Part shown: one piece after another, positions 5,725 through 53,227 of the stretch
Layout of the letters: each line of letters starts with the position of its first letter
Position numbering within the stretch: position 1 is the stretch's first letter
NCBI GenBank assembly: GCA_004769085.1
Contig: DUDS01000019.1
Coordinates: 446-64,445 of the forward strand
Length of the DNA: 64,000 nt
Origin: Candidatus Melainabacteria bacterium SSGW_16
Lineage (GTDB): Bacteria > Cyanobacteriota > Vampirovibrionia > 2-02-FULL-35-15
Reading direction: 5' to 3'
The notes under the pieces: model-generated
The model's database searches: none
The model's input: only the letters and a program-made list of their open reading frames with translations
What the model was told of the DNA's origin: nothing
Position numbers and translations under genes: made by a program

Positions 5725-7495
5725 AAGTACAACTCAAACTAAAAAGATAACAACAAATGCTTTTGACATAAAATTAAAACCACCTATTTTTATATTAGGT
5801 TCTGGTAGATCAGGAACCTCACTACTTAGAAGTATTTTGAATAATCATCCTGATATTTACTGTATGGAAGGAGAAACTCATTTATTTTCACCGGAGTCAA
5901 ATCCTTATCTTGAAGAATTAGAATTTTTTCAAAGTTCAAATGACATTAAAAGCTTAATATTTACAATTATTTCATCTATATTATTTGGGCATGAATGCAC
6001 AGCTCTATTTGCAAGAAGAAAGAAGTTTCCAAAGGAAGTTATTGAAATATACCACGATCTTCAAGACTTCCTTTTGACTGTAGGCTCGCAAGAAAAGTAC
6101 AAAATCTTTAATATTTGTATAGGACACATAACACTGAAAGAAAATAAAAAAAGGTGGCTTGAAAAAACTCCAAACAATATATTTAATTTACCTGATATTC
6201 TCTCCCTTTATCCAGATGCAAAGTTTATTGAAATATACAGAGATCCAAGGGGAGTATATTATTCCTGGAAAAATGCTAAGCAAGATTATTTTAAAAAAAC
6301 TAATATTATTGAGTGTATAAAAAAGTGGAGCAAAACTTTTGAGTATTCAAAAAAATATGCTCATGAGTTACCAAATCAATTTTACAAACTCAAATATGAA
6401 AACCTGGTCGAAGATCCTAAAGTAGAACTGATTAGTCTTTGTAATTTTTTAAATGAAGATTTCAATCAGTCGTTACTAGGGGTGACAACAAGGAGCCTTG
6501 GTTTTGACGAGACTTCAAGCACTACTATATGGAAAGATAATCTAATAAAAAACGAATTACTATTGATTGACTTGAAAACCAAGGAATACAGGAAAGAGCT
6601 TGGCTATATTGATTCCGGAGTAAAACTTAATTTAATTAACATGATTCCATTTTGTCTTTTTTATATAAGAAACAAATTTTTTGGTCGAATAAATTTTCTT
6701 ACTGAAAAGCTTTTTGGTCAAATCAATTTTCTTACTGAAAAGCTTTTTGGTCAAATCAATTTTCTTGCTAGAAAGCTTTTTGGTCGCATAAATCTTCGTA
6801 CTGAAAAGCTTTTTGGTCGCATAGCTTTGCTTATTAATAAATACATAGCTATTGCAAATGAACTTCTTCAATCAATTTTAAGGAAACCATATTCCTTTAG
6901 AAGAAAATGTAAAACTTTGTATTGGGTTATTAAAAGAAAAAGAAAGGTACAAGAGTACATTGATACGCATAAGGTTAAAAAACTTCACATAGGAGCTGGT
7001 CCTAATATGCTTAAAGACTGGTTAAATACAAATATTATGCCAATTACAAATGAAGATATTTTTTTAGATGCTTCAATACGTTTTCCATTTGATGGTAATA
7101 CTTTTGATTGCATATCTATTAATCAGTCCATAGAGTATCTGAAATATAACCAGTCCAAACACTGTTTGAATGAGTGCTTCAGAGTCTTGAAGCCAGACGG
7201 AAAAATCAGGATCATTACCGTAAATTTGGAGAACTTTATTAAAATCTATTCAAAGAAAGACCCAACAAAAGAAGAAAAAGATTACATAAAATTTGTAATA
7301 GATTCATGCATGCCAGATATTGGCATCTATAAAAATGCTTTTATTATGAACAGTCTGTTTAGCAGGCTTAATTATAAATTTATTCATGACTATGAATCAC
7401 TGAATGACATGCTGGAAAAAATTGGATTTATTTACATTAATTTTTTATCAAAGAATGATTTCGAGACTTTAGTGGTTGAAGCCAGGAAGCCATAA
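5711..7495 (+). CDS. Bifunctional sulfotransferase / class I SAM-dependent methyltransferase fusion with internal 11-aa tandem-repeat linker
   Basis: The N-terminal domain has KPPIFILGSGRSGTSLL and EIYRDPRGVYYSW, a sulfotransferase paralog of the upstream gene. The middle carries FGRINFLTEKL x about 5. The C-terminus has HIGAGPNMLKDW...FDCISINQSIEYL...CFRVLKPDGKIRI, a Methyltransf_11-like SAM-binding fold. Confidence 0.75.
   Translation: MQTLKSTTQTKKITTNAFDIKLKPPIFILGSGRSGTSLLRSILNNHPDIYCMEGETHLFSPESNPYLEELEFFQSSNDIKSLIFTIISSILFGHECTALFARRKKFPKEVIEIYHDLQDFLLTVGSQEKYKIFNICIGHITLKENKKRWLEKTPNNIFNLPDILSLYPDAKFIEIYRDPRGVYYSWKNAKQDYFKKTNIIECIKKWSKTFEYSKKYAHELPNQFYKLKYENLVEDPKVELISLCNFLNEDFNQSLLGVTTRSLGFDETSSTTIWKDNLIKNELLLIDLKTKEYRKELGYIDSGVKLNLINMIPFCLFYIRNKFFGRINFLTEKLFGQINFLTEKLFGQINFLARKLFGRINLRTEKLFGRIALLINKYIAIANELLQSILRKPYSFRRKCKTLYWVIKRKRKVQEYIDTHKVKKLHIGAGPNMLKDWLNTNIMPITNEDIFLDASIRFPFDGNTFDCISINQSIEYLKYNQSKHCLNECFRVLKPDGKIRIITVNLENFIKIYSKKDPTKEEKDYIKFVIDSCMPDIGIYKNAFIMNSLFSRLNYKFIHDYESLNDMLEKIGFIYINFLSKNDFETLVVEARKP
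6680..6830 (+). repeat. In-frame 33-bp tandem repeat (about 4.5 copies) inside the sulfotransferase-methyltransferase gene
   Basis: Units tttggtcgaataaattttcttactgaaaagctt / tttggtcaaatcaattttcttactgaaaagctt / ...gctagaaagctt / tttggtcgcataaatcttcgtactgaaaagctt. They encode the FG(R/Q)INFLTEKL hendecad repeats. Confidence 0.9.
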
Positions 7496-9246: not shown

Positions 9247-9360
9247 TTAAGTGTGCTTACACAAAAGCGAAACCCATACCCTAAGCGCAGCGTTGGAAGC
9301 GCCAAGCGGACAAGCGGAGCATGGGTATGGGTTGAGCATAAAAAGTGTAAGCACACTTAA
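9247..9360. repeat. GC-rich ~113-bp nested-hairpin element, copy 1 (TIR ttaagtgtgcttacac / gtgtaagcacacttaa)
   Basis: Perfect 16-bp terminal inverted repeat. Inner stem aaacccataccc / gggtatgggtt. GC-rich core in an AT-rich genome. It lies 10 bp after the fliR stop and is near-identical in architecture and sequence to 22676-22788. Confidence 0.85.
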
Positions 9361-9369
9361 ATAACAGTA

Positions 9370-10155
9370 CTAATACAAATACCTGTTAGGATCCAGAAAT
9401 AGTTTTGCTAAAATCTGAAACAAAGCCGGAAGAAGAATCAACATGAGCAATATACCTACTGAAGGTTTTATTGAAAAACTAACCTGAAAAGCATTAATCT
9501 GAGGGGCAGCTCTCGACATAAGACCAAGTATTAAATCAACAGTAAGAAGTATCATAATAATTGGTGAAACAATAAGAAATGCAATTGAAATTAAATCTGC
9601 AGTAGCTTTTAAAAGTTTAAGAAAATTAAAATTAAAGCTGTATACAATTACCGGGAAAGTATTATAACTTTTGAATAGTCCTTCAATAACCTTTTCCATT
9701 CCTCCAATTGAAACAAAAATCACAAGTCCAAGCATATTAAAGAAATGTCCCATTATTGTTGTTTGACTTTGTGTACCAGGATCAAAAACAGTTGCTGCAT
9801 TTAATGCCATCTGCGAATCAAGCATTTCACCTGCAACCCTTGCAATCTCAATCACAAGGCTTGAAACCCACCCGATAAACATTCCAATCGCTGCATTCAT
9901 AAAAATCAGATAAATAAATTTATAACCCTTTGGATATTCTGAAGGTGTATCAATCATTGGCATAAATATTAATGAGAGTACAATTGCAAAACCTACCTTT
10001 ACAAGTGCGGGTATTTGTTTGCTTCCAATTAATGGTGCTGTGCTTATAAAACCAATAGTCCTTGCAAAGATCAACAACAAAATAATCCATACCCCGCCCA
10101 GTTGGGTAAGAATTTTTGTTTCATTAATTATAAAATCAAACATCAAATACCTCAT
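9370..10155 (-). CDS. fliR: Flagellar type III export gate component FliR
   Basis: 261-aa polytopic membrane protein. ARTIGFISTAPLIGSKQIPALVKVGFAIVLSL matches the FliR N-terminal region. It is the last gene of the fliPQR operon. Confidence 0.8.
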   Translation of the reverse strand: MRYLMFDFIINETKILTQLGGVWIILLLIFARTIGFISTAPLIGSKQIPALVKVGFAIVLSLIFMPMIDTPSEYPKGYKFIYLIFMNAAIGMFIGWVSSLVIEIARVAGEMLDSQMALNAATVFDPGTQSQTTIMGHFFNMLGLVIFVSIGGMEKVIEGLFKSYNTFPVIVYSFNFNFLKLLKATADLISIAFLIVSPIIMILLTVDLILGLMSRAAPQINAFQVSFSIKPSVGILLMLILLPALFQILAKLFLDPNRYLY

Positions 10156-10931
10156 TCAAGCCAGGTGGGTGGCACCTGATCCTTTGGAGCAGTATCAGAT
10201 TCATTTACAGTTTTTGGATTGTCTTCAATTACATCCTGAATACCTATAGGGGAAGCATTTTGAGCAGGGGCTTGTATTTCATTTACATTTGCCTGAGGAT
10301 TTTCATTCTGCTTAATAATATTTGTTGCCGGTGAAGGCACTGGTGTAGGGGTAGGGGTTGGAGCAGGAGCAGTCTGAATATTTGTTAACTCTTGTTCTTT
10401 AACATTTAAAGAATCTGTCTGGGTTTCAATAATTTTATTTTGGTTTATCGGAATAGAAGGCGGCAATAGTTTTGTTATCTGAGGAGGATTTGGAACTTCA
10501 GGTGCACCGGCGTATGGTACTCCAGGCGGCACACCCCCCTGAGGAAGAAGCTCTTCAATTTTTTCAGCCTTGGGAAGTTTTGGTACAGGAATCTCATTCT
10601 CTTCATCAAAAGTAATATTAAATTTATTTTCATCAAAAGCACCTGTAGGGACTGCTTTTTGTGATTGTTTAGGCACAAATGAAAAGGCCGAGTTAAGTGT
10701 CCTTGTTGCATATTGATTTAAATACTGATACATCCAGAAACCTGCAATAATAATCAGTCCAAAAACCCCGATAATTTTTAATGCAGAACCAATTGTCTGT
10801 TCCTGCACCTGTGTAGCAGCCTGCAGAATACCAATCACAAGACCAATTAATGCAGCAGCAAGCACAAGAGGTCCTGAAACAATCAATACAACGATTATTC
10901 CATCCCTAACTGCTTGTGGCATCCATTCCAT
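10152..10931 (-). CDS. fliQ: Flagellar export gate component FliQ with ~170-aa Pro/Gln-rich C-terminal extension
   Basis: The first ~88 aa (LAAALIGLVIGILQAATQVQEQTIGSALKIIGVFGLIIIAGFWM) align with canonical 89-aa FliQ. The ORF then continues through a low-complexity P/Q/T-rich tail (PTPTPTPVPSPATN) and overlaps the fliR start by 4 bp. Confidence 0.7.
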   Translation of the reverse strand: MEWMPQAVRDGIIVVLIVSGPLVLAAALIGLVIGILQAATQVQEQTIGSALKIIGVFGLIIIAGFWMYQYLNQYATRTLNSAFSFVPKQSQKAVPTGAFDENKFNITFDEENEIPVPKLPKAEKIEELLPQGGVPPGVPYAGAPEVPNPPQITKLLPPSIPINQNKIIETQTDSLNVKEQELTNIQTAPAPTPTPTPVPSPATNIIKQNENPQANVNEIQAPAQNASPIGIQDVIEDNPKTVNESDTAPKDQVPPTWLE

Positions 10932-11050
10932 TTTTTATTTGAAAACATTTAGGCTTAAATGTTTTCTTTCCTCCTCGGCGCTCAAAATATTGCTCCTCGC
11001 AACATTTTTCGCTTATCTACTTATCCCCCTTGTACAGATGATATCTCAAG

Positions 11051-11701
11051 CTAATTAAAGCTCTGGACAAGCCCTTTAATAATAAGCGTCCAGCCATCTA
11101 CAGCTACAAATATTAATAACTTAAACGGAAGAGAAACAATAGTCGGAGACAACATTATCATACCTAAAGCAAGAAGTATATTAGCGATAATAAGATCAAT
11201 CACAAGAAAAGGAATGAAAATTAAAAACCCAATCTGAAATGATGTTCGCAATTCACTCAACAGATACGCTGCTACAAGCTCTCTGAAACCAACCTGATCA
11301 GGATTTTTTGGATTTGGAGATTTACTCAGACGATAAAAAAAAGCTAAATCTTTCATGTCAGTCTGCTTCAGCATATAATTTCTAAGTGGTTTATATGCTT
11401 CTCCAACTGCCTGTGGTACAGACATCTGCTGATTACTAAGAGGAATAAGAGCCTTCTCATTCATCTGCCCCAGAGTAGGACCCATTACATAACCAGTAAG
11501 TATAATTGCCATTCCGATTATTACCAGATTTGGCGGCACCTGCTGAGTACCGATTGAGGTTCTAAGCAAGGAAAGAATAATTATTATTCTTAAAAAAGGA
11601 GTCATCGTGACTACTATTAATGGAAGCATTGAAAGCAGAACAAGCAGTACTACTATCTGTAAGGATGGTTCTAAATTAGGCAGAAGATTTTCCCAGTTCA
11701 T
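11051..11701 (-). CDS. fliP: Flagellar export gate component FliP
   Basis: TPFLRIIIILSLLRTSIGTQQVPPNLVIIGMAIILTGYVMGP matches the FliP signature (FTRIIIVxxLLRxALGT...PPNQV). Confidence 0.85.
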   Translation of the reverse strand: MNWENLLPNLEPSLQIVVLLVLLSMLPLIVVTMTPFLRIIIILSLLRTSIGTQQVPPNLVIIGMAIILTGYVMGPTLGQMNEKALIPLSNQQMSVPQAVGEAYKPLRNYMLKQTDMKDLAFFYRLSKSPNPKNPDQVGFRELVAAYLLSELRTSFQIGFLIFIPFLVIDLIIANILLALGMIMLSPTIVSLPFKLLIFVAVDGWTLIIKGLVQSFN

Positions 11702-11711
11702 TTTTTATACC

Positions 11712-11972
11712 TTAAAATATCCTTATCCCTTTTTGAGAAGAAAATAGTTTTAGTTTTTCACCAGCAGGCATTAGAAGTTCATAAAGAGCAGATTTCAGAA
11801 TAACCTTCTTTTTCTTTACAATTTTTATATCAGGAATCCCTGTTAATGCGCCATAAAGCAGCCTTGCAGCAATATTTGATTCTTTTGCTACCCAGAATGC
11901 AAAGAGAGAAACCAGTCCCCCGCCAAGAAAAATAATCATTAGTTTTAATAAAAATGAAAAAATAAATTCCAT
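11712..11972 (-). CDS. Small single-pass membrane protein, FliO/FliZ-like by position
   Basis: 86 aa with one hydrophobic helix (IIFLGGGLVSLFAFWVA). It sits between the fliN-like gene and fliP, where fliO usually lies. The call rests on position only. Confidence 0.4.
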   Translation of the reverse strand: MEFIFSFLLKLMIIFLGGGLVSLFAFWVAKESNIAARLLYGALTGIPDIKIVKKKKVILKSALYELLMPAGEKLKLFSSQKGIRIF

Positions 11973-11975
11973 CTT

Positions 11976-13166
11976 CTATGTCTCTTCAAGGTCTTTCAAT
12001 GCATCAGCAAAAGAAGATGACTGTTCAGTTTTTGTCTGCTGCCCTTTTCCGAGAAGATCATCTATTTCCACAGTAGAACCAGTTGTCCCCTTGGCACCTT
12101 TCTTGGAACCAATCAACAGATCTGTAATCCTCATCCCAAACTGGTTTCCAATAATTACAAGTTCACCTTTTGCAACCGGCTTACCTTGTGCAGTTAAAAC
12201 AAGTTCAGAATCAAGCACCGGACCCAATGGAAGAACACCGCCTGATTTAAGTTCCAGGACCTGCTTCAAAGGAATTAACACCTTCTGGAATTCCGCGGAT
12301 AACTCCAGAGGAAGACTTGAAAGCGGGTCATCATCGTAATTTTGTGGATTTTTTGCCATCTCTTTGGCCAATTGATTTATATTACTAATCCCCTGTAAAA
12401 AAACAGGGTGATCGCTTTCTGGTAAGACGAGACTTATTTCACCTAAGTGCCAGTAAAATTTGCTAATATCACTATCTTCAAAAACAAGAAGGTCCCCGGA
12501 CTCCAGAGACTTGACATCATTCACCGAAACCCTCGTAGAGCCAACTTTTAAGCTAATTGGGACCTTTATACCCGTATTAGCAAGTTTGTTAATATCTATA
12601 ACTTGTTTTCCTTCAAGTGTAACTTTTTTTGGCTTTAAGCTTGCAGGTATACCATATGCAATTCTCCCGATCTCTGCCTCTTCTGATTCAATTAACCATA
12701 CAAGATATATTAAATCCAAAAGATATGCATGTTTTACATCAACCTCCCAGTACTCTCTCATTTTATTTTCAATATTTACAAGTAATCCCTGAAGTATCTG
12801 AATCTCAAGCTGTGTAATTCTTTTTATGCTGAATGGCTGGTTTACAGGAGATGGTCCAAAAGCATGGTTCAAGAGGAAATCAGCCAGCTTCTCATCTATT
12901 CTTATCTGACCATTCTGATTATTATGCTGCCATGAACCTGCAAGTCCAATCCAATTATTTAAATCCAAATCAAGAAGTATTGCAACAATTTTTGTTTTTA
13001 CCCTCAAACCAAAAAATTTTAAAAATATATCCTGTAAATCAATATTTTGATCTGACCACTGAAAAAGGTTATTAATTAAAGGTTCATTTACAATTTGAAA
13101 AGAATCAGGTTTTAGTGGATTCAACCCAATTTGTCTTATTAGCTCTTTGTTCTTATTCTTTGTCAT
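11976..13166 (-). CDS. Flagellar motor switch protein, FliN/FliY family (SpoA domain) with long N-terminal region
   Basis: LVLTAQGKPVAKGELVIIGNQFGMRITDLLIGSKK matches the FliN SpoA surface-presentation domain (GEVVVV.DKFGVRITDI). It is the first gene of the fliOPQR operon. Confidence 0.6.
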   Translation of the reverse strand: MTKNKNKELIRQIGLNPLKPDSFQIVNEPLINNLFQWSDQNIDLQDIFLKFFGLRVKTKIVAILLDLDLNNWIGLAGSWQHNNQNGQIRIDEKLADFLLNHAFGPSPVNQPFSIKRITQLEIQILQGLLVNIENKMREYWEVDVKHAYLLDLIYLVWLIESEEAEIGRIAYGIPASLKPKKVTLEGKQVIDINKLANTGIKVPISLKVGSTRVSVNDVKSLESGDLLVFEDSDISKFYWHLGEISLVLPESDHPVFLQGISNINQLAKEMAKNPQNYDDDPLSSLPLELSAEFQKVLIPLKQVLELKSGGVLPLGPVLDSELVLTAQGKPVAKGELVIIGNQFGMRITDLLIGSKKGAKGTTGSTVEIDDLLGKGQQTKTEQSSSFADALKDLEET

Positions 13167-13221: not shown

Positions 13222-13256
13222 TCAGGTGGCTCGCTCATAATGAGACTCGCCACCTT
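13222..13256 (-). promoter_or_regulatory. Conserved 35-bp imperfect palindrome (motif A: aaggtggcgagtctcattatgagcgagccacctga) upstream of fliN-like operon
   Basis: Identical 35-mer at 31286-31320 upstream of gyrA, in the same orientation relative to the downstream gene. Arms are AGGTGGC/GCCACCT with a central CTCAT-t-ATGAG. Confidence 0.6.
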
Positions 13257-13294
13257 TCACTAGTACACTTAATATAGGCTAAATTTAACAGTTT

Positions 13295-13328
13295 AAAGGT
13301 TTTGCCAAATAAATTGGTCAAAACCTTT
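13295..13328 (-). promoter_or_regulatory. Conserved dyad motif B (aaaggttttgNccaa-N5-6-ttggNcaaaacct) upstream of fliN-like operon
   Basis: A near-identical dyad at 31214-31245 sits 40 bp upstream of motif A in the gyrA leader. Here it lies 38 bp upstream of motif A on the minus strand. Confidence 0.55.
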
Positions 13329-13392
13329 CTCGTCTAGTAGTTTAAAATATTATCTTGAATTTAAAAATCAGTGGTAATTTTAAGAAGCAAAA

Positions 13393-20283: not shown

Positions 20284-20727
20284 ATGTCATTCAAATATCG
20301 TTTAGAAAAAGTCCTGAAGATTCGAGAAGAACAACTCGATGAAGCAATACTTAAAATGAAAAAAGCAGAAGAAAATCTTAAATCCATTTCATACGATCTC
20401 AGTGTAACAACTGAACACAGAAATGATCTTCATACTGAACTTATAAAAGAGGGATTATCACATGCAACTCTCTACGTAAGAAGGATTAAGCAACTGAATG
20501 AAAGAATTGCAAAATTAGAAAAAGATCTTCAGTCCGCACAAGATGCACTTATTAAGGCCAAAGAAGATGTAATCGAAGCAAAGATGAAACTTGAAGCTCT
20601 GAAAAAACATAAACAGAAAAAATACAGTGATTATATAAATGAAGAAAACAGAAAAGAAAGACTTATGCTGGATGAAATTGGTGTACTAAAGCACACAAGA
20701 GAGCTGATAGAAAGTAGGGAGGAATAA
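20284..20727 (+). CDS. fliJ: Flagellar export chaperone FliJ-like coiled-coil protein
   Basis: 147 aa, entirely coiled-coil (YRLEKVLKIREEQLDEAILKMKKAEENL). It lies upstream of FliK-like and rod-protein genes. Confidence 0.5.
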   Translation: MSFKYRLEKVLKIREEQLDEAILKMKKAEENLKSISYDLSVTTEHRNDLHTELIKEGLSHATLYVRRIKQLNERIAKLEKDLQSAQDALIKAKEDVIEAKMKLEALKKHKQKKYSDYINEENRKERLMLDEIGVLKHTRELIESREE

Positions 20728-21519
20728 GTGGCTGGACCAATAATACAACCTGGCGACACAAAAGCCTTCAGACTTGGAATAAGTTTGCTTGATAATCCTT
20801 ATGTAAAACCTGCCAGTGCACTAAGCTTTGAAGAAGTACTGGATAGCAAAACAAAAGAGGTTACAGAAAAAGTAAAAGATGAGACTGTTAAAACCTCGGA
20901 AGAAACTTCTGACACGAAAAACAAGAAGTTAGACAGAAACTCAAAAGATGAACTTTTTAACATTAATAAGATAGTTCAAAATGACAGAAACCAAGGTGCT
21001 GAATTAAAAAACACATACACATTATTAAAGCAGTTTAAACAAAACAGGAAATCCTATGAGGAAGAGTCTTCAAAAGGATCAAGACACAACACTCTAACCA
21101 ATGTATACAACGCTGCAGGACAACCCCAAATACAAGCGACTTACGAAAGAGGATCACAGAGAAGAATGTCAAAATCACAACTTCTCAATTTGTGGGAAAA
21201 AGTAGCTCCATGGATAACAGAAGACGCAATGAAGAAATCAATTAGGGTTGACATTCCATTGGTAAATGACATACAAGCCCTCGTACTTAGAATGCACCCG
21301 GACAAAAGTGTAACAGCATCACTTCTGGGATCAGAAGAGATGGGAAAACTAATCAAAGAAAACAAAGACAAGCTTGACAGAAACCTAAAGCATCACAAGC
21401 TCTCATTAAGGGAATTTAATACCTATCATTCAGAGCTTACATTTAATTCGGAATCCGGAACAAAGAAACAAAAGAAAAAAGCAAAAATAGGTGACAAGAA
21501 ACAGGTAGATTTAATTTAA
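20728..21519 (+). CDS. Flagellar hook-length control protein FliK-like
   Basis: The C-terminal region IRVDIPLVNDIQALVLRMHPDKSVTASLLGSEEMGKLIKEN resembles the FliK Flg_hook domain (LRLQLHPEELGRV...). It sits between fliJ and a rod/hook gene. Confidence 0.45.
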   Translation: MAGPIIQPGDTKAFRLGISLLDNPYVKPASALSFEEVLDSKTKEVTEKVKDETVKTSEETSDTKNKKLDRNSKDELFNINKIVQNDRNQGAELKNTYTLLKQFKQNRKSYEEESSKGSRHNTLTNVYNAAGQPQIQATYERGSQRRMSKSQLLNLWEKVAPWITEDAMKKSIRVDIPLVNDIQALVLRMHPDKSVTASLLGSEEMGKLIKENKDKLDRNLKHHKLSLREFNTYHSELTFNSESGTKKQKKKAKIGDKKQVDLI

Positions 21520-21541
21520 GGTTTAGAAGGAGAAAGAAAAC

Positions 21542-22426
21542 ATGTTTAACTCAACAACAATATCAGCAAATGCAGCCCAGTCATCACTGGAATTGATTGA
21601 CATACTGTCAACAAACATAATCAATTCAGAAGCCCCTGGTTTCAACAGCAAAAGATTTTCATTTCATGATTATCTTACAGGTGGACAGGTAGAAATTAAT
21701 GGTAATTCATGGAGACAAGGGAAAAAAATTGTCAGAGTGGGTGAGCCAACCAAAATGATGCTCTCAGGAAAAGGCTTTTTTACAACTGTAAATCCACAAA
21801 ACAATGAGATCCTTTATACAAGGCTTGGTGATTTTAATTTTGACAGAAGCGGTTACCTCGCAACACAGGAAGGTTTTCTTCTTTTAGGAACACCTTTGAT
21901 ATCAAATGTACAGCCAAAAGGTGGTAACTCACAGTACAAAACTCCAGGAGCAAAATATGATATTTCTACATTTGTGGATCCTTTTAATAATCCTTTAAAC
22001 AGAGAGCATCCACAGGCAGATCAGGGAGCAGCACTAGGTGGCCCACAGCCAATTAATCTGGCAGTTGATCCAACAAACGGACTATACCTGGGCAAATATG
22101 AAAAAATAAGAATTGATGAATCAGGTGTGGTTTGGGGAAGATACGGTGATAGTGAAGTATCCCTCTATAAAATTACACTTAATAATTTTCAAAATCTAAA
22201 TGGATTGAAAAATTTCCGCGACACATACTGGAAGCAAACTTCAGAAAGCGGTGCCCCGCTTCCGTGCAGTGCAACAGTATTCAATGAAGCTTTAGAAAAA
22301 TCAAATGTATGGGCAAAGGTCGAGGTTGATTACATTATTGAAGCTCAAAGACAATATTCCGCTGCAATAAATGCTCACAAGGTAGCAGACAGACTGATGC
22401 AGCAAGCAATTGAACTTGTTGGTTAA
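21542..22426 (+). CDS. Flagellar basal-body rod / hook family protein (FlgF/FlgG-like)
   Basis: The N-terminal motif LSTNIINSEAPGF matches flg_bb_rod. The C-terminal SNVWAKVEVDYIIEAQRQYSAAINAHKVADRLMQQ matches the FlgG C-terminal motif (SNVDLxxEMVNMIxAQRxYEANSK). Confidence 0.7.
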   Translation: MFNSTTISANAAQSSLELIDILSTNIINSEAPGFNSKRFSFHDYLTGGQVEINGNSWRQGKKIVRVGEPTKMMLSGKGFFTTVNPQNNEILYTRLGDFNFDRSGYLATQEGFLLLGTPLISNVQPKGGNSQYKTPGAKYDISTFVDPFNNPLNREHPQADQGAALGGPQPINLAVDPTNGLYLGKYEKIRIDESGVVWGRYGDSEVSLYKITLNNFQNLNGLKNFRDTYWKQTSESGAPLPCSATVFNEALEKSNVWAKVEVDYIIEAQRQYSAAINAHKVADRLMQQAIELVG

Positions 22427-22675: not shown

Positions 22676-22788
22676 CAAATGTGCTTACACAACGCGAAAC
22701 CCATGCCCGAAGTCGAGCGTTGTAGGCTTCGAGCCGTACAAGCGAGCGCAGGGTATGGGTGGAGCATAAAAAGTGTAAGCACATTTGA
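22676..22788. repeat. GC-rich ~113-bp nested-hairpin element, copy 2 (TIR caaatgtgcttacac / gtgtaagcacatttg)
   Basis: Perfect 15-bp TIR. Inner stem aacccatgccc / gggtatgggtg. It shares ...gcgaaacccat.ccc...gggtatgggt.gagcataaaaagtgtaagcaca with copy 1 and lies 14 bp after the carA stop. Confidence 0.85.
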
Positions 22789-31213: not shown

Positions 31214-31245
31214 AAAGGTTTTGTCCAATTCATTTGGCAAAACCT
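31214..31245 (+). promoter_or_regulatory. Dyad motif B (aaaggttttgtccaattcatttggcaaaacct) upstream of gyrA
   Basis: Same dyad as 13295-13328; 40 bp upstream of motif A. Confidence 0.55.
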
Positions 31246-31285
31246 GGGAAACGTTAAAGTTGGTTTATTATAAGTACGCTATGCA

Positions 31286-31320
31286 AAGGTGGCGAGTCTC
31301 ATTATGAGCGAGCCACCTGA
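31286..31320 (+). promoter_or_regulatory. Motif A palindrome (aaggtggcgagtctcattatgagcgagccacctga) 14 nt upstream of gyrA start
   Basis: A 35/35 identical copy of the element upstream of the fliN-like operon. No canonical SD lies between it and the ATG. Confidence 0.6.
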
Positions 31321-46283: not shown

Positions 46284-46871
46284 ATGCATGTATTAGTAAT
46301 AGATAACTACGACAGTTTTACTTATAACCTTGTTCAATACATAGGTGAATTAAAATATGAGGTTTCAGTATTCAGGAATGATGAAATTACAATTGAAAAA
46401 ATAAAGTCATTAAATCCATGTCATATAGTAATTTCACCCGGTCCAGGAAGGCCTGACGATGCAGGAATCAGCAAATCAATAATAAAAGAACTTGCCGGAA
46501 AAATACCAATACTTGGAGTATGTCTTGGACATCAGTGCATTGGTGAAGTATATGGCGGAAAAATAACTAATGCACCTGAACTTATGCATGGGAAAACTTC
46601 AGATATTCATCATTCAGGAGATTCAATATTTTCAGATATTCCAAGCCCTTTTACAGCGACCAGGTACCATTCATTAATTGTTGATTTAAAAAGTATTGAA
46701 AAAAGTCCTTTAAAAATAACTGCAAAAACAAAAGACAATCTTATAATGGCTCTTGAACATAAGGAATTTAACAGCCTTATTGGTGTACAATTTCATCCTG
46801 AATCAATTCTTACTGAGCACGGACATAAACTACTGACTAATTTCTTAAAGTTAAAAGGAATCAAATCATGA
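46284..46871 (+). CDS. Glutamine amidotransferase class I: anthranilate/aminodeoxychorismate synthase component II
   Basis: MHVLVIDNYDSFTYNLVQYIGELKYEVSVFRNDE; PILGVCLGHQ catalytic Cys; FHPES. Confidence 0.8.
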   Translation: MHVLVIDNYDSFTYNLVQYIGELKYEVSVFRNDEITIEKIKSLNPCHIVISPGPGRPDDAGISKSIIKELAGKIPILGVCLGHQCIGEVYGGKITNAPELMHGKTSDIHHSGDSIFSDIPSPFTATRYHSLIVDLKSIEKSPLKITAKTKDNLIMALEHKEFNSLIGVQFHPESILTEHGHKLLTNFLKLKGIKS

Positions 46872-47359
46872 GGACATTATTAAAATATTTATTGTTTATT
46901 TTATTTCTTGCAATATCTCTAAATATCCCGGCAAACGCACTATTAGATAAGGACAAAGACATTGCCAGGAAAAACCCAAACAGCGCTTTTGCAGAAGGAC
47001 TTACACAAAACCCAAGATATAAAGTCACTGAAGATGACAGAGTTTTTGCACGGAACAATCCACAAACAAGATTTGCCAAAACAATAGCGGCAAACCCAAA
47101 TTATATTGTAGATCTGCCAGACAAAACATTTGCAATGAAAAACCCCGACAGTGCTTTTGCTGAAGGACTTGCACAAAATCCTACTTATCTAATCAGAAAT
47201 GAAGACAAAGAATTTGCAAGAAGTAATCCAAATACAAAGTTTTCAGAATTCCTGGTTACAAATCCTGCTTATATAATTGAACCTGCAGACAGGGAATTCG
47301 CAAGAAACAACCCTGATACAAAAGCAGCATATGGGATTGCCAAGAATCCAAGTCATTAA
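46868..47359 (+). CDS. Secreted protein made of about five ~28-aa repeats (D-K/R-x-F-A-R-x-NP-x-S/T-x-F-A-E-x-L-x-x-NP-x-Y)
   Basis: Signal peptide MRTLLKYLLFILFLAISLNIPANA, then DKDIARKNPNSAFAEGLTQNPRYKVTE / DDRVFARNNPQTRFAKTIAANPNYIVDLP / DKTFAMKNPDSAFAEGLAQNPTYLIRNE / DKEFARSNPNTKFSEFLVTNPAYIIEPA / DREFARNNPDTKAAYGIAKNPSH. Confidence 0.55.
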   Translation: MRTLLKYLLFILFLAISLNIPANALLDKDKDIARKNPNSAFAEGLTQNPRYKVTEDDRVFARNNPQTRFAKTIAANPNYIVDLPDKTFAMKNPDSAFAEGLAQNPTYLIRNEDKEFARSNPNTKFSEFLVTNPAYIIEPADREFARNNPDTKAAYGIAKNPSH

Positions 47360-47360
47360 A

Positions 47361-48482
47361 ATGAGAAGTAATTACGTTATAGGGCTGAATTCAGGAACTT
47401 CATTTGATGGAATTGATGTTGCACTGGTTAAATTTAAAAAAAATGATTTAAGACCTATCTTTGTAGACGGAATTGTTTGTGAATATCCGAAAAAAATCAA
47501 GGAACAAATCAGAGAATTAATTGCTTCAGCAGGATCAATTCATAATCTATCTCCACAGAAAATATCAAAATTAGATATAAGCCTTGGCAATTTATTTGCA
47601 AATACTGCTCTGCAAATCATCAAAAAACGCGGATTAAAAAAAGAAGATATTTTATTAATAGGTTCTCATGGTCAAACTATTTACCATAAACCAAGAGTAA
47701 AATCAGTACAAATCGGTAACGGAAAAATAATTGCAAAAAGAACAGACATAAAAACAATTAATGATTTCAGAGAAGCGGACATTAAAGCAGGTGGCGAGGG
47801 TGCACCACTTATGCCATTTCTGGATCAGGTATGTTTTGGCAAAACGAAAAAAGGAATTATTACTTTAAATATTGGCGGTATAGCAAATATAACTGCTACA
47901 GGAAAGAACATAAAACCTATTGCATTTGATACAGGCCCAGGAAATGCACTCATAGACCTGGTTACAAGAAAATATTTTAATACTGATTTTGACAGGGATG
48001 GACTAATAGCAAAAAAAGGTAATGTGATTTTTAAGTATATAAAAAAAGCAGCCCTAGATCCTTATTTTAGGATTTCTCCGCCAAAGTCTACAGGCAAAGA
48101 ATATTTCAATCAACAATTCATAGATAGATATTTTTCACAAATAAAGAAGAAAAGGGATCTTATTTCAACTCTTACATTTTTCACTGCATACACAATTAAA
48201 TACTCGCTCGAGAAATATGTTTTTCGAAAACATAAAATAAGCGAAATTGTAATCTCAGGAGGAGGGTTAAAAAATAAAACTCTTGTAAGTTTTCTTAAGA
48301 AGATTTTACCCAGGATAAATATTACAAGCTCAGATAAATACGGGCTGCCGTCGAAATATAAAGAAGCTATACTTTTTGCATTACTTGGTTATACATGTCT
48401 GAAACAAATCCCTAATAACATTCCAAGCTGTACAGGTGCCAGAAAAAAAACAGTAACTGGTAAAATATGTGTAGGTATTTAA
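47361..48482 (+). CDS. anmK: Anhydro-N-acetylmuramic acid kinase
   Basis: YVIGLNSGTSFDGIDVALV (compare GLMSGTSLDGVDAALI). The start is placed at MRSNYV after the upstream stop. Confidence 0.8.
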   Translation: MRSNYVIGLNSGTSFDGIDVALVKFKKNDLRPIFVDGIVCEYPKKIKEQIRELIASAGSIHNLSPQKISKLDISLGNLFANTALQIIKKRGLKKEDILLIGSHGQTIYHKPRVKSVQIGNGKIIAKRTDIKTINDFREADIKAGGEGAPLMPFLDQVCFGKTKKGIITLNIGGIANITATGKNIKPIAFDTGPGNALIDLVTRKYFNTDFDRDGLIAKKGNVIFKYIKKAALDPYFRISPPKSTGKEYFNQQFIDRYFSQIKKKRDLISTLTFFTAYTIKYSLEKYVFRKHKISEIVISGGGLKNKTLVSFLKKILPRINITSSDKYGLPSKYKEAILFALLGYTCLKQIPNNIPSCTGARKKTVTGKICVGI

Positions 48483-48489
48483 GCAATAA

Positions 48490-49452
48490 TTGAGGAAAGT
48501 AACCATGGTCTTAAAAAATCCAAAAGTAACAGTTGTAGGTGCAGGAAATGTAGGTGCCACCTGTGCGCAAAGACTAATTGAGAAAAATATTTGTGATGTT
48601 GTACTGATAGATATTTTAGAAGGAATTCCTCAGGGAAAAGCACTGGATTTAATGGAAGCAAGACCTGTTGAACTGCATGACAGGAAAATCAAAGGTACAA
48701 ATAATTATTCAGCGACAAAAGATTCAGATGTAGTAGTAATTACTGCAGGCATTGCCAGAAAACCAGGCATGAGCAGAGATGATCTTTTAAAAACAAATGC
48801 TCAGATTGTCAGTGGAGTCACAACAGAAGTAGTAAAATACTCACCTGATTCAATAATAATAGTAGTATCTAACCCTCTGGATGTAATGACTCACCTTACC
48901 TGGCTAAAAAGCAAATTCCCTCCGAAAAGGGTTTTTGGTATGGCAGGAGTTCTTGATTCAGCCAGAATGAGATTTTTTATTGCTGAGGCACTTAATGTTT
49001 CTACAGATGATGTTCAGGCAATGGTTTTAGGAGGTCATGGTGATCAAATGGTTCCATTACCCAGGTTTTCAACTGTTTCCGGTATTCCTATTACAGAACT
49101 TCTCCCGCCACAAAAAATTAATGAAATAAATGAAAGAACAAAAAATGGTGGGATTGAAATAGTAAATCTTTTAAAAACCGGAAGCGCATATTACGCCCCT
49201 GCAAGCTCTGCTGCAACAATGGTAGAAGCTATAGTACAGGACAGAAAAAGAGTTTTCCCGGTTGCTGCTTATCTAAATGGAGAATATGGACTCAAAGATG
49301 TTTTTATAGGAGTTCCTGTAAAACTTGGTTCAGGTGGCATTGAAGAGATAATTGAATTAAAACTTGCGGCAGAAGAACTGGAAGCACTACATAAAAGTGC
49401 TGAAGCTGTAAAAAGCAATACTAGTAAGCTTTTTGAACTTGCTCTGGTTTAA
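48490..49452 (+). CDS. mdh: Malate dehydrogenase (LDH-like MDH family)
   Basis: [16 protein letters not shown]...[22 protein letters not shown]; the IPQGKALD motif and substrate-loop region [14 protein letters not shown]. Confidence 0.8.
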
Positions 49453-49495
49453 CCTCTTAACTTTCTTCTTATTTCTTTACAGCCAAATTTAGGCC

Positions 49496-49522
49496 TTGAC
49501 ATCACAATATTTTTTTTATTAT
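49496..49522 (+). promoter_or_regulatory. Candidate sigma-70-type promoter (TTGACA-N15-TATTAT) upstream of the Cys-rich protein gene
   Basis: TTGACA at 49496-49501 and TATTAT at 49517-49522. The 15-bp spacing is suboptimal, so the call is tentative. Confidence 0.3.
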
Positions 49523-49603
49523 TATCGGGATATCAGTACATATATTCTATTTACTTCAAGCGGGAAGTGTATCTAGAGGAGGAGGCACTTCCCGTGCATT
49601 TAT

Positions 49604-49626
49604 TAAACCCTCTCAATAACAGCAGC
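49604..49626. repeat. 23-bp direct repeat copy 1 (taaaccctctcaataacagcagc), a displaced duplicate of the thiolase 3' end
   Basis: Identical 23-mer at 50747-50769, where it encodes the thiolase C-terminus AAVIERV plus stop on the minus strand. Here it is non-coding. Confidence 0.85.
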
Positions 49627-49685
49627 GTATTTACTCTATAGGGGCAACCCTAAACACTGATCTTTTCAGCGGGTAAAAATCCTTT

Positions 49686-50726
49686 ATGAGAATGTTAAAA
49701 GTTATTTTTGGTTTGCTGATATTTATTAGCATTATCCAAACAGTAAATATTCAAAATTTATTCACATCATTACCTGCTATTGCATGTCCAAGCGGTTCCA
49801 CGGCAAGTGACTGCTCGTTAAGAGGATGCTCTGGTAATGCACAATGCAAAGACAGATGTATCTGTACTCACTGTACAAATGAAACATATGGGGGTTCATG
49901 CTTTAAAGACAGTGACTGTAAAAATGGAGGTAAATGTATCGGGGGAGATAGTGAACAATGTATAGTTGGCGAATGTCGCTTTTTACCAACAACTGATGAT
50001 GATTGTTATAATTTTTGCCATGGACTAAAAGAAGGTTATCGAAATGGATTTCATTTAAAGCAAGGAGAAACTTGTACCTCAATTGGGAAAAACACTGAAA
50101 ATAAATGTCTTAATAGCAAAGAAATAAATAATTGTTGTTGTGTACCCTGCAAAGATAATGATAATAGCTGTCATTGTGAATATGGCACAGATGAATCCGT
50201 GATTTGCTCAGCAAAAGAACATATAAATTCAGAATGCCCAAGCTATTTAAAATCTACAAATGTAAATGTCCCTGATCCCCCCATAACTTATAAAAGAGAC
50301 TGCAGTACAAATGATCATGGATATTGTGGATATTGCTCTTGTCCAGAAAATAATAATAATATATGCATAAGTACATGTTCACATCAAGGTTGTATATCAG
50401 ATATTTGTGAAATAGCAAATCATGAAATGGGTCATTGGTGGGATTGTTTCACAAATAGAACTGGATCTAATTCTGATTCTGCTTGCACCGGAATAAAAAA
50501 CCATGTAGTAATTGAAAATGCTACCTATAATGACTGTATTGAAAGAAATCAATTCCCTTCCGATTGTAATGATACGAAAAATAGACTTATAAATTATTGC
50601 AATAATTACTGTAGTAATAAATGTCCCTTCAGTAATGAGGTAAAACTTATTTGTGAAAAGTTTGGAATAACCTGTGGTTCTGCTGCCTCTGGAGCTGGAG
50701 CTGCAGTTCCAATGCCAACCCCATAA
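49686..50726 (+). CDS. Secreted, extremely cysteine-rich protein (about 50 Cys in 346 aa), unknown function
   Basis: Signal peptide MRMLKVIFGLLIFISIIQTVNIQN. There are dense CxxC, CC and CxC patterns, several N-x-S/T sites, a G/A-rich C-terminus, and no recognisable domain. It is bounded by the 23-bp direct repeats. Confidence 0.55.
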   Translation: MRMLKVIFGLLIFISIIQTVNIQNLFTSLPAIACPSGSTASDCSLRGCSGNAQCKDRCICTHCTNETYGGSCFKDSDCKNGGKCIGGDSEQCIVGECRFLPTTDDDCYNFCHGLKEGYRNGFHLKQGETCTSIGKNTENKCLNSKEINNCCCVPCKDNDNSCHCEYGTDESVICSAKEHINSECPSYLKSTNVNVPDPPITYKRDCSTNDHGYCGYCSCPENNNNICISTCSHQGCISDICEIANHEMGHWWDCFTNRTGSNSDSACTGIKNHVVIENATYNDCIERNQFPSDCNDTKNRLINYCNNYCSNKCPFSNEVKLICEKFGITCGSAASGAGAAVPMPTP

Positions 50727-50745
50727 GCTCTTATCAAAGGCTGCT

Positions 50746-51903
50746 CTAAACCCTCTCAATAACAGCAGCAATTCCCTGACCAAATCCTATACAAAGACTG
50801 GACACGCCTCTCTTTAGATTTCTTCGTTCAAGTTCATGCAACAAAGTAGTAATCAGCCTGGCACCACTAGCCCCCAAAGGATGCCCGATAGCAATTGCAC
50901 CACCGTTTACATTTACTTTATCTGCAGGAATACTTAGTTCTCTCTGAGCTGCAAGAACAACAGATGCAAATGCTTCATTTATTTCAAATAAATCTATATC
51001 CTTCATTTCAAGTCCTGATTTTTTCAATGCCTTGGGAATTGAATAAATTGGTCCTGTAAGCTGAAGTTCTACATCAGTACCCACTACTGAAAAACCCAAA
51101 AACTTTGCCCTTGGTTTAAAACCATATTTCTTTACAGCACTTTCACTTGCTATTAATAGTGCAGAAGCTCCGTCACTAACCTGGCTGGCATTGGCTGCTG
51201 TAATAACTCCGCCTTCTTTAAAGGCAGGTGCTAAAGTACCCATTTTCTCAATGGATGTATCACTTCTGATTCCTTCATCCTTTTCAATCAGTCCCTTGGA
51301 AGTACTAACAGGAATAATTTCTTTTTTGAAAAATCCTTTGCCTGTTGCAATAGCAGCTTTCATGTGACTTTCATATGAAAACTCATCCAGATCCCTTCTG
51401 CTTAATTTCCATTTTGCAGCCATTAATTCTCCGGAAATTCCCATTGGATTTGCTTTAAAATTCTTTAAAAAACTATCTGGTAAAGTTGGTTTTGTTTTGC
51501 CTGGCATGGGAAACCCATCACCACCAAGTGGAATTTTTCCCATGCTTTCTACGCCACCTGCTATAAGAAGATCATGAGCACCAGCCATTACAGCCTGAAT
51601 CGCAAAATGAATTGCCTGCTGCCCTGATCCACACATTCTGTTTAGCTGGACGCCCGGCACAGTAATATCAAGAGCTGTTATTGCAATAAGCCTGGCAATA
51701 TTTAATCCCTGCTCAGCAACAGGACTTGCACAACCATAAATTAAATCCTCAATATCAGTTGGTTTTAGATTATTTCTTTTAACTAATTCTTTTACAGGTA
51801 TCCCTCCAAGATCCACTGGATGAACTTCAGCAAAAACACCTGTATCTTTTCCACGACCAATCGGTGTTCTTATTGCATCAATAATATAAGCTGCATTTGA
51901 CAT
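50746..51903 (-). CDS. Thiolase (acetyl-CoA C-acetyl/acyltransferase)
   Basis: [15 protein letters not shown]...[21 protein letters not shown] and the catalytic Cys region [12 protein letters not shown]. Confidence 0.85.
50747..50769. repeat. 23-bp direct repeat copy 2 (within thiolase 3' coding end)
   Basis: Perfect match to 49604-49626, 1143 bp apart. Confidence 0.85.
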
Positions 51904-52000: not shown

Positions 52001-53227
52001 TTAAACTCTTTCAAAGATAATAGCTATAGCCTGTCCACCGCCAATACACAGTGTTACCAATCCATATCGGGATGGAAGCCCTTCATCTGCTCTTTTATGC
52101 ATCTCATGTAATAGAGTTACAGGAAGCCTTGTCCCACTTGCTCCTAATGGATGTCCTAAAGCAATAGCGCCACCGTTTACATTTACTTTTTCAGGATCTA
52201 TGCCAAGTTCTTCTATTGTTGCAAGTGCAACAGATGCAAATGCTTCATTTATTTCAAATAAATCTATATCTTTAATTTTCATATTAGCTTTTGCAAGAAC
52301 TTTTCTTACAGCATCTATTGGTCCAATTAAATGTTCTGCAGGTTTTTGAGAATCTGTTTTTACTACAGCAGAGGCAACAATCCTCGCCATAGGAACAAGA
52401 TCATGTTCTTTAAGTGCCTGTTCACTAACGACTAAATACCCTGCAACACCAGCACTAATCTGACTGGAAGTAGCAGCAGTATGCAGACCAAACCTGCCAA
52501 ATGAAGGCTTGAGTTTTTTAGATAAAACTTCAAGCGAAGTATCAGATCTTATCCCTTCATCAAAATCAAGATACCCTCTCGGTGTTCTGACTGTAACTAT
52601 TTCGTCTTTAAATCTTCCATTCTGCATTGCATAAGCTGCCTTCATCTGGCTAAAAAAACCGTATTCATCAAGCATTTTCCTGGAATATCCACGGCTTGTT
52701 GCTATGGCATCACCATAAGCTCCCATTGGTAATAGTGAATACCCTTCCGGAAGAGAAAGTTTAACAACCGATGCACCCATTGCAACAATCTTTCTAAGAT
52801 TTTTTAAATTCCCGCCAAGAGTATTTGATGCAGGCATTAAATCCTGTCCCTGGAAAACTCTGTGATTATTTTCTACCCCCATTACAAGCACTATTTCATT
52901 TTCACCGCTTGCAATTTGAGCCTGAGCTAATCGGGTAGCCTGTGCACTGGAACCACATAAATCATTAATTGTTGTTGCATGAACAAACGGACCAAATGCT
53001 AATTCACCAATTCTTGTAGCCATGTTACATCCCTGTTCACCAGTTTGAGTAGCACAGCCTACAAAAAGTTCATTAATGTACTTTGGATCTAAATTTGCCC
53101 TGTTAACTATTTCTTTTGCAACTGTAACACCAAGAGTTTCAGGTTTTACCCTAGAGAAAAGTCCACCTTTAGCACTAGTTGCTGTTCTGAGAGGTCCCAC
53201 AAGAAATGCTGATCTTACTTCAGGCAC
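52001..53227 (-). CDS. Thiolase paralog
   Basis: [52 protein letters not shown] active-site region. Confidence 0.8.
   Translation of the reverse strand: MPEVRSAFLVGPLRTATSAKGGLFSRVKPETLGVTVAKEIVNRANLDPKYINELFVGCATQTGEQGCNMATRIGELAFGPFVHATTINDLCGSSAQATRLAQAQIASGENEIVLVMGVENNHRVFQGQDLMPASNTLGGNLKNLRKIVAMGASVVKLSLPEGYSLLPMGAYGDAIATSRGYSRKMLDEYGFFSQMKAAYAMQNGRFKDEIVTVRTPRGYLDFDEGIRSDTSLEVLSKKLKPSFGRFGLHTAATSSQISAGVAGYLVVSEQALKEHDLVPMARIVASAVVKTDSQKPAEHLIGPIDAVRKVLAKANMKIKDIDLFEINEAFASVALATIEELGIDPEKVNVNGGAIALGHPLGASGTRLPVTLLHEMHKRADEGLPSRYGLVTLCIGGGQAIAIIFERV

Follow-up and report, generated by a model that had tools for sequence, protein, structure and literature searches.

How can a genome take up a new gene at a point where two housekeeping genes converge with practically no spacer between them? 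The question is raised by a locus of the groundwater bacterium Candidatus Melainabacteria bacterium SSGW_16 (GenBank assembly GCA_004769085.1), where a single gene for a cysteine-rich protein, here called the cargo gene, lies between mdh (malate/lactate dehydrogenase) and thl1 (thiolase) and is bounded by a perfect 23-bp direct repeat. The stretch analysed comprises 64,000 nucleotides of contig DUDS01000019.1 (positions 446 to 64,445) and is referred to as the window; positions are counted from its first base. Melainabacteria are a sister lineage of Cyanobacteria that does not photosynthesize. The window represents ordinary chromosome, the closest genomes are metagenome-assembled genomes (MAGs) labelled Candidatus Melainabacteria or Caenarcanales, and the contigs compared with it are from groundwater metagenomes.

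A first-pass annotation, made from the letters of the window, had interpreted the segment as an insertion that duplicated its target, attributed it to site-specific integration with att-like repeats, and regarded the gene as foreign. The analysis reported here agrees with the first of these points, and the segment is very probably an insertion that duplicated its target. As to how it arose, we lean towards a duplicative one-gene insertion into the last 23 bp of thl1 by recombination that did not depend on an integrase.

The direct repeat and the end of thl1

Exactly two copies of the 23-mer TAAACCCTCTCAATAACAGCAGC are present in the window (49604–49626 and 50747–50769), as the first-pass annotation had noticed, and a search that tolerated up to three mismatches gave no third match. 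Dinucleotide shuffles (n = 100) gave an expectation of 0.01 23-mer matches, and none of the 100 contained two copies. At both copies the identity ends abruptly, the adjoining bases being different on either side. Independent assemblies from different runs (L001, Logan SRR8867079; L083, NCBI GCA_900218045.1) show the arrangement of repeats and cargo gene at 100% identity, and assembly L002 (ENA ERZ978523) is identical to the window over 47877–50799, which covers anmK, mdh, the repeat-bounded segment (the cassette) and both repeats. The recovery of one structure from independent assemblies shows that the arrangement is not an assembly artefact; the repeat is also shorter than the assembler k-mer (k127). 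A chance repeat or an assembly chimera, the most trivial explanations of the locus, are thus of negligible probability.

The right copy consists of the last seven codons of thl1 (AAVIERV) and the first two bases, TA, of its stop codon. The first-pass annotation had assigned the complete stop to the repeat; the codons were correct, but the stop is TAG (50746–50748, minus strand), the G of which is not part of the repeat and comes from the inserted DNA. The left copy is non-coding. Base 49603 completes an ancestral TAA stop next to it, so that the copy reads GTT-TAA, followed by TAAATGCAC and then by a hairpin. The thl1 gene ends with GTT-TAA in 14 of 14 relatives, whereas the right copy of the window has GTT-TAG. 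Since it is the left copy that has kept the TAA of the relatives, and the right copy has a TAG completed by a base of the insert, the left copy should be the original end. On the simplest reading, the left copy would therefore be the original gene end, pushed 1143 bp away, and the right copy a duplicate that keeps thl1 intact.

Alternatively, the left copy might be the last piece of a tandemly duplicated thl1 that has decayed, the cargo open reading frame (ORF) having arisen within the decayed copy. The tandem arrangement of thl1 with its paralog thl2, with which it shares a perfect 43-mer, would be in keeping with such a history. However, comparison of 49453–50745 with thl1 and thl2 by blastn and tblastn revealed no nucleotide or translated similarity beyond the 23 nt, so that the longer thiolase remnant considered in the first-pass annotation was not found at the left copy. 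The boundary of identity is abrupt, and the cargo gene has 11 homologs at unrelated loci (see below). Decay of a tandem duplicate is thus highly improbable.

The mdh/thl1 junction in related genomes

The comparison of the thl1 locus covered the genomes of four species representatives and ten contigs from metagenomes, all of the same clade; the window proteins were mapped on each of them. The orthologs of mdh and thl1 in these relatives are 83–95% and 78–94% identical, respectively, at the amino acid level. The comparison with syntenic regions, which had been suggested in the first-pass annotation, revealed an empty site in seven lineages. In these, mdh and thl1 converge with their stops -4 (L084), 0 (L005 and L091), 2 (L089 and L093), 4 (L004) or 32 nt (L085) apart. 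In the window itself, an empty site would be expected to read CACTTCCCGTGCATTTAT, the 23-mer and AATTCCCTGACC.

Five or six other lineages carry different, unrelated orphan genes at the same place: a 567-aa membrane protein in L003 and L088, a 1060-aa protein in L006 that has a weak relative in L087, proteins of 577 and 636 aa in L086, and a 248-aa protein in L092. None of these proteins could be assigned to a Pfam or NCBIfam family, and the cargo genes at the junction of the ~14 loci encode no recombinase, transposase or phage domain. No flanking repeats were found around the cargo of L003 and L006. In L090, a palindrome resembling a miniature inverted-repeat transposable element (MITE) follows directly after the thl1 stop (~120 bp, L090 1637–1757, with terminal inverted repeats CGTCATTGCGAGGAG and CTCCTCGCAATGACG).

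Given seven empty sites and unrelated cargo in other lineages, the ancestral state is that of abutting mdh and thl1 genes, and the junction is a hot spot, that is, a recurrent site of lineage-specific gene gain and loss. The pair L086 and L087 was considered as a clean filled and empty pair and was rejected, as homology ends ~15 nt past the thl1 stop. Short repeats related to the L090 element occur in intergenic regions of L006 and L086.

The inserted segment

Unique inserted DNA starts at 49627, and the insertion is ~1.1 kb long. Only one credible gene, that of the 346-aa cargo protein, lies between the copies; the first-pass annotation had the gene and its length right but counted roughly 50 cysteines where there are 41. 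Features of the locus are listed in Table 1.

As judged by GC content (z = -0.1), GC3 (z = -1.1) and codon usage (z = -0.6), the cargo gene is typical of the window. The protein is absent from phage and plasmid collections, and its sole relatives are encoded on contigs of 32–37% GC, several of them from the same groundwater samples. These data lend no support to the foreign origin that had been proposed for the gene. Its composition is native, and it evidently belongs to an accessory pool of this or compositionally similar lineages.

Pfam searches with ~60 ORFs of the 64-kb window found no integrase, transposase, recombinase, relaxase or phage protein, in agreement with the earlier remark that no integrase remains. 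The insert does not qualify as a transposon, insertion sequence (IS) or MITE: there are no inverted repeats between its ends, no transposase in the window, and the duplication is 23 bp as against 2–14 bp for elements of these types. Nor does it qualify as an integron cassette, as the window contains no integrase and the 20-nt spacer between the cargo stop and thl1, to which no formal attC model was applied, folds only into a weak 6-bp stem.

The 151-bp region on the mdh side of the left copy contains a sigma-70-like promoter match directed toward the cargo gene, in which both hexamers are kept in L092, and a GC-rich hairpin. If transcription starts at this site, as the consensus match would suggest, both the hairpin and the left 23-mer would belong to the leader of the cargo mRNA. 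In the first-pass annotation, the hairpin had been considered as a possible original thiolase terminator. The hairpin is real, but this role is doubtful: it folds better on the mdh and cargo strand than on the thl1 strand, has no canonical U-tract on either strand, and lies downstream of the strong promoter-like site. Judging from consensus matches and folding, it is no less probable that the hairpin serves as a leader structure or as a weak mdh terminator. Neither the hairpin nor the leader matched an Rfam family. The possibility that the hairpin is a dispersed repeat of the repetitive extragenic palindromic (REP) or MITE type was rejected, as it is unique to the window clade.

A perfect 14-mer, TATTTCTTTACAGC, is shared by the mdh-side intergenic region (49470–49483) and thl1 (51125–51138, codons AVKKY, minus strand). 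At a borderline E of ~0.06, it is possibly another tiny thiolase-derived scrap.

Table 1. Positions of features at the mdh/thl1 junction (window coordinates unless a contig is named).
Feature	Position	Strand	Description	Evidence
mdh, conserved left flank	48490..49452	+	malate/lactate dehydrogenase, convergent with thl1	Pfam Ldh_1_N/Ldh_1_C, E 2e-44 / 8e-34
mdh-side intergenic region	49453..49603	+	151 bp, window/L092 clade only	88% identical to L092, absent from other relatives
Promoter-like site	49496..49525	+	sigma-70-like match TTGACA-18-TATTAT, 11/12, toward cargo gene	best score in promoter scan
GC-rich hairpin	49560..49596	+		-21.4 kcal/mol, z = -3.1 (+ strand); z = -1.4 (- strand)
Left 23-mer	49604..49626	-	putative displaced original thl1 3' end (AAVIERV + TA)	exact repeat
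Leader	49627..49685	+	59 nt, left repeat to cargo start codon	no similarity to thl1 or any relative
Cargo gene	49686..50726	+	346-aa predicted secreted Cys-rich protein; HExxH H246/E247/H250, H273, 41 Cys	ORF
Spacer at insert end	50727..50746	.	20 nt; last base 50746 is the G of thl1 TAG	not in L092
thl1, conserved right flank	50746..51903	-	thiolase, 385 aa, putative insertion target	Pfam Thiolase_N/C, E 7e-63 / 4e-47
Right 23-mer	50747..50769	-	putative duplicate, now functional thl1 3' end	exact repeat, within intact 385-aa thl1 ORF
Mosaic tract in thl1	50800..51157	-	358 bp	25 differences vs L002
mdh 3' fragment	L092 1847-1912	minus strand of locus
Orphan gene	L092 990-1736	minus strand of locus	248 aa

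Decay, replacement and recombination at the junction

L092 is the closest relative of the window (94% and 95% amino acid identity for thl1 and mdh, respectively; ~87% nucleotide identity) and shares the 151-bp region, including the promoter-like site and the hairpin, at 88%. Directly after the hairpin, only the last ~43 codons of the cargo gene are present (75% nucleotide and 58% amino acid identity). L092 is evidently a deletion derivative that has lost ~1 kb, the left 23-mer included. The presence of the remnant indicates that the cassette predates a nucleotide divergence of 12–13% and is decaying in one lineage. A recent insertion was considered and rejected, as the deletion derivative lies at the same place in a genome that has diverged to this extent.

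The remnant's stop in L092 is followed by a 64-nt copy of an mdh 3' end, in which 21 codons (VHKSAEVVKKNVLKLSELALV) and the stop are kept, then by ~110 nt and by the orphan gene, whose end is separated from the thl1 stop by 1 nt. The fragment is 67–84% identical to real mdh ends at the amino acid level and 56–74% at the nucleotide level, and only 64% (nucleotides) to the mdh of L092 itself. As amino acid identity exceeds nucleotide identity and the mdh of L092 is so dissimilar, the fragment evidently evolved in a functional mdh of another, unsampled lineage and arrived together with the 248-aa gene. A protein search for the donor of this gene gave self matches only. The joint between the remnant and the fragment lies within CCATAA, 6 nt that are common to the end of the Cys-rich gene and the mdh 3' region; such microhomology is typical of an illegitimate join, which here would have imported DNA of another lineage. 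The L092 arrangement was seen in six contigs from five samples.

Another gene-end fragment is found in L086, where a degenerate second thl1 end (QGIAGVIERV) follows the first cargo gene and matches real ends at 23–25 of 30 nt.

L002, identical to the window at the cassette, differs from it within thl1 at 25 sites (7%) in a tract of 358 bp that starts 31 bp from the right repeat. It is otherwise identical over 2.9 kb to the left of the tract and 374 bp to its right. Neither thl2 nor any sampled relative was the source of the tract, which is evidently an import by homologous recombination from an unsampled lineage, beside the insertion. The ERZ978523 assembly breaks inside thl1.

The data on L092 bear also on the question whether the left 23-mer has been retained for a function. 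As part of the 5' leader of the cargo transcript, it would be perfectly complementary to the 3' end of the convergent thl1 mRNA, and antisense coupling of the two genes would then account for the perfect identity of the copies by selection rather than youth. The position of the promoter-like site, which would put the hairpin and the left copy in the 5' untranslated region, is compatible with this proposal, as are the identity of the copies despite the apparent age of the cassette and the failure to find a terminator-like site between the convergent genes. However, L092 has deleted the left copy with no visible consequence for thl1, other members of the cargo family have no such repeat, and identity over 23 nt for this time span has a probability of ~0.1 by chance. 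Moreover, the proposal would explain the maintenance of the repeat but not its origin, and we consider it very improbable.

Origin of the duplication

With a spacer of -4 to +32 nt, the junction offers almost no neutral target. Hence, only insertions that regenerate a gene end would survive there, and duplicated ends are to be expected whatever enzyme is involved. Between abutting mdh and thl1 genes, an insertion would be tolerated only when the broken gene end was rebuilt. In the window, the original end of thl1 would have been pushed 1.14 kb away, with the duplicate closing thl1 by a TAG that ends in a base of the insert. The event was most likely carried out by the general recombination or repair machinery of the cell, for which two routes may be envisaged.

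In the first route, a circular DNA would recombine with the chromosome by one crossover within a short sequence common to both; the junction of such a circle would be expected to read AAAGGCTGCTC, the 23-mer and GTATTTACTC. For RecA-dependent exchange, 23 bp is close to the minimum length. Crossovers of this type (Campbell-type) duplicate the shared segment in direct orientation around the insert, and the topology is the same as that in the window; the documented duplications span 109–950 bp (PMC3240628), as compared with 23 bp here. The product would have this structure whether the crossover was catalysed by a site-specific recombinase or by the general recombination machinery.

The second route would be one-sided homology-facilitated illegitimate recombination (HFIR) with DNA of a related donor, anchored in thl1. 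In the donor, the cargo gene would already have adjoined thl1. Homologous exchange within thl1, combined with an illegitimate join 23 bp inside the end of the recipient thl1, would leave the severed TAA end behind and install the TAG end of the donor. In the E. coli experiments, single crossovers gave duplications and true HFIR gave deletions (PMC3240628). Displacement of cassettes with stranded 3' ends, and no integrase, has been proposed for the effector arrays of the V. cholerae type VI secretion system (T6SS) and for Rhs loci (PMC5361080). The scars in the T6SS effector-immunity arrays and those of Rhs C-terminal displacement resemble the locus of the window in that new DNA enters next to a conserved anchor gene, stranded 3' ends mark the borders, no integrase is present, and lineage-specific cargo accumulates at one locus (PMC5361080). 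The window differs in that its anchors are two housekeeping genes converging without a spacer, its stranded piece duplicates the end of the resident gene perfectly over 23 bp, and its cargo, like that of the related junctions, consists of unrelated orphans, not of toxin and immunity modules. The mechanism proposed for the window rests on analogy with L092 and L086.

An origin by recombination or repair is favoured by several findings taken together: no recombinase is encoded in the window or at the related junctions; viral, phage and plasmid collections contain no cognate element; the gene-end fragments of the three lineages differ in length and boundaries; L092 has the features of an illegitimate scar, namely the CCATAA joint and a foreign mdh 3' fragment; and the cargo gene is of native composition and the other members of its family have no flanking repeats.

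The main competitor is the interpretation of the first-pass annotation, according to which the 23-mers are attL and attR of a small element that targeted the 3' end of thl1. Such an element would have carried a replacement gene end, and its integrase would since have been lost, as in cis-mobilizable elements (CIMEs), or its recombinase would be encoded elsewhere. Related systems include prophages 21 and e14 in icd of E. coli. In support of integration, the direct repeats are perfect and sharply bounded, one of them rebuilds the 3' end of a conserved gene, an unoccupied site is present in seven lineages, and the structure is that expected of a circle-by-chromosome crossover within 23 bp. The size and content are within the range of classical CIMEs, which are 1.2–13 kb long, carry cargo genes and occupy 3' ends of housekeeping genes (PMC7563491). 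CIMEs and other decayed integrative elements at the 3' ends of fda, rpsI and rpmG in streptococci likewise have att-like direct repeats, one of which restores the gene end, and are small elements with cargo and no integrase (PMC7563491).

However, no integrase or mobility gene was found in the 64 kb or in the junction cargo of ~14 lineages, and these same loci contain no cognate integrase-bearing element or tandem partner, such as the ICE, IME or prophage with the same att site from which a CIME derives or beside which it lies. The 23-mer is absent from viral contigs, and inspection revealed in it no inverted-repeat architecture of the kind used by recombinases. There is no sign of mobility between genomes, the composition is native, and the insertion is old and decaying in L092. 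The absence of repeats around other family members and the variable boundaries of the gene-end fragments in L086 and L092, one with a microhomology joint and of foreign origin, point to recombination and repair. Integrase-mediated integration is therefore rather unlikely.

A bolder version is that the 23-mer is the working site of a recombinase encoded in trans, and the junction a dedicated cassette-capture site that swaps single orphan genes. We regard this as improbable. If true, it would mean a function like that of integrons or CIMEs with no adjacent integrase and with the flanking gene end rebuilt each time, and continued use of the site would explain why the copies are still identical in so old a cassette.

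Several observations weigh against the integrase-independent insertion that we favour. An att core would look just like this perfect duplication of 23 bp with no similarity beyond its limits, and the genome, of which 64 kb were examined, could encode a recombinase at another place. The empty-site relatives lack the 151-bp region that separates mdh from the left copy, so that at least one further, unexplained step is required. The two 23-mers are identical, whereas ~2–2.5 differences would be expected at the apparent age of the cassette (P of no difference, ~0.1; the thl1 end of L092 differs from that of the window at two synonymous sites). This is mildly odd but not significant, and might point to selection, to gene conversion or to an event of more recent date. 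Neither a donor genome for the insertion nor, in exact-protein look-ups of mdh, thl1, thl2 and anmK, a strain-level empty site was found. Finally, the fragment in L086 is of little length (E = 0.23, small database), although its position is as expected.

The cargo protein and its family

The cargo protein contains 11.8% cysteine, with three CxxC, two CC and four CxC motifs, and four N-x-S/T sequons. Word-indexed protein searches retrieved only the protein itself, and nearly nothing for the orphan proteins of the other junctions. An exhaustive HMMER search of 1.84 billion cluster representatives revealed 11 distant homologs (32–46% identity, E 1e-4 to 8e-22), so that the family comprises 12 clusters among 1.84 billion. 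The homologs are encoded at unrelated loci, several in samples that also contain relatives of the window (Ga0209515; PRJEB22302). A tetranucleotide signature was uninformative on the taxonomy of their contigs, SAR86 scoring as high as Melainabacteria. One homolog, P0007 (L168 1–5970, Ga0209515_10000035), is encoded directly downstream of a giant gene (>3470 aa); the contig, which is 255 kb long, is from the same sample as three Melainabacteria relatives.

The residues H246-E247-x-x-H250 are invariant in 11 aligned sequences, and H273 is near-invariant (10 of 11). Eight cysteines in the C-terminal ~230 residues are invariant as well, and most members have hydrophobic N-termini. Homolog P0010 has in common with the cargo protein only an N-terminal Cys-rich module (residues 25–102). 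An AlphaFold2 model based on the family alignment had an overall predicted local distance difference test score (pLDDT) of 70, with values of 75–92 over most of residues 100–333, and placed HExxH in a helix (240–255) and H273 in the next one (267–287).

The invariant HExxH, which the model places in a helix, recalls zincin metallopeptidases such as the catalytic core of anthrax lethal factor. In zincins, a third metal ligand (Glu, His or Asp) is provided by a downstream element, for which the near-invariant H273 in the next predicted helix would be a candidate. Searches of PDB profiles, Pfam and NCBIfam with the cargo protein gave no match, and Foldseek gave nothing significant. The top PDB matches were almost all anthrax lethal factor (E ~3), and the best two viral matches, likewise non-significant, were a minor capsid protein (E = 0.28) and a protein annotated as 'Peptidase' (E = 0.29). 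Unlike known zincins, the protein thus has no significant sequence or fold similarity to any peptidase family; its cysteine content is unusually high, with the eight invariant residues in the core and the N-terminal Cys-rich module in addition. The zincin assignment depends on a motif and on non-significant fold matches. The protein probably consists of a secreted, disulfide-rich, zincin-like domain, and it is fairly likely that it binds metal, presumably zinc, or acts as a peptidase. As judged by the searches, the family is evidently a new, undescribed, tiny and fast-evolving one of Cys-rich proteins with HExxH.

Other features of the window

The ~60 ORFs include, as judged by Pfam, housekeeping and flagellar genes (gyrA, hisD, hisG, L13/S9, fliP/Q/R, argJ, lpxB and others). 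Flagellar export and structural genes (FliR/Q/P-type, FliN-like, FliJ and FlgE/F/G-like) are located at 9373–13166 and 20284–22423, and this groundwater Melainabacterium is probably motile.

The thl1 and thl2 proteins are ~42% identical, yet their genes share a perfect 43-mer (50958–51000 and 52228–52270) and a perfect 20-mer (50900–50919 and 52170–52189), both within 175 nt that are 77% identical, a pattern suggestive of gene conversion between the paralogs. Two adjacent sulfotransferase paralogs (4618–7495) have a perfect 39-mer and a perfect 19-mer in common (5169/6211 and 5209/6251), and the second of them contains 33-nt tandem repeats at ~6692–6830.

Another fast-changing spot lies two genes from the junction, where a 163-aa protein composed of ~27-aa repeats (..ARNNP.T.FA..) is encoded between pabA and anmK (46868–47359). 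The repeat array is much expanded in L004 (9341–11231), and the gene is absent in L172, an L092-type genome.

A 114-bp palindromic MITE-like element (9247–9360; ends TTAAGTGTGCTTACAC and GTGTAAGCACACTTAA, internal CCCATACCC...GGGTATGGG) is located downstream of an Rrf2-family regulator gene, and a partial second copy downstream of carA (~22700–22785) has a perfect 22-mer in common with it. A 36-nt palindromic hairpin, GGTGGCTCGCTCATAATGAGACTCGCCACC, occurs in inverted orientation in two intergenic regions 18 kb apart (13222–13257 and 31285–31320), and a second hairpin-like motif, beginning with AAAGGTTTTGCCAAA, occurs inverted in the same two regions (13297–13330 and 31216–31250). Located upstream of a Band_7/SPFH-family gene and gyrA, these motifs may represent terminators or REP-like modules.

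Implications

The scar at the end of thl1 is a new and fairly ordinary example of known processes, to which a small new protein family is added. It illustrates, in nature and with good resolution, how a compact genome can gain a gene at a point where two essential genes adjoin: an insertion there must rebuild the gene end that it breaks, and the short duplicated 3' end that results is a datable scar. Across ~14 lineages, gain, replacement and decay of orphan genes can be followed at one junction with no visible mobile-element machinery, which bears on how 'islands without integrases' in metagenome-assembled genomes are read. The cargo family represents HExxH proteins, predicted to be secreted and rich in disulfides, from non-photosynthetic and poorly known relatives of Cyanobacteria and, if its members are active metalloproteases, they would be candidates for extracellular or host- or prey-directed functions.

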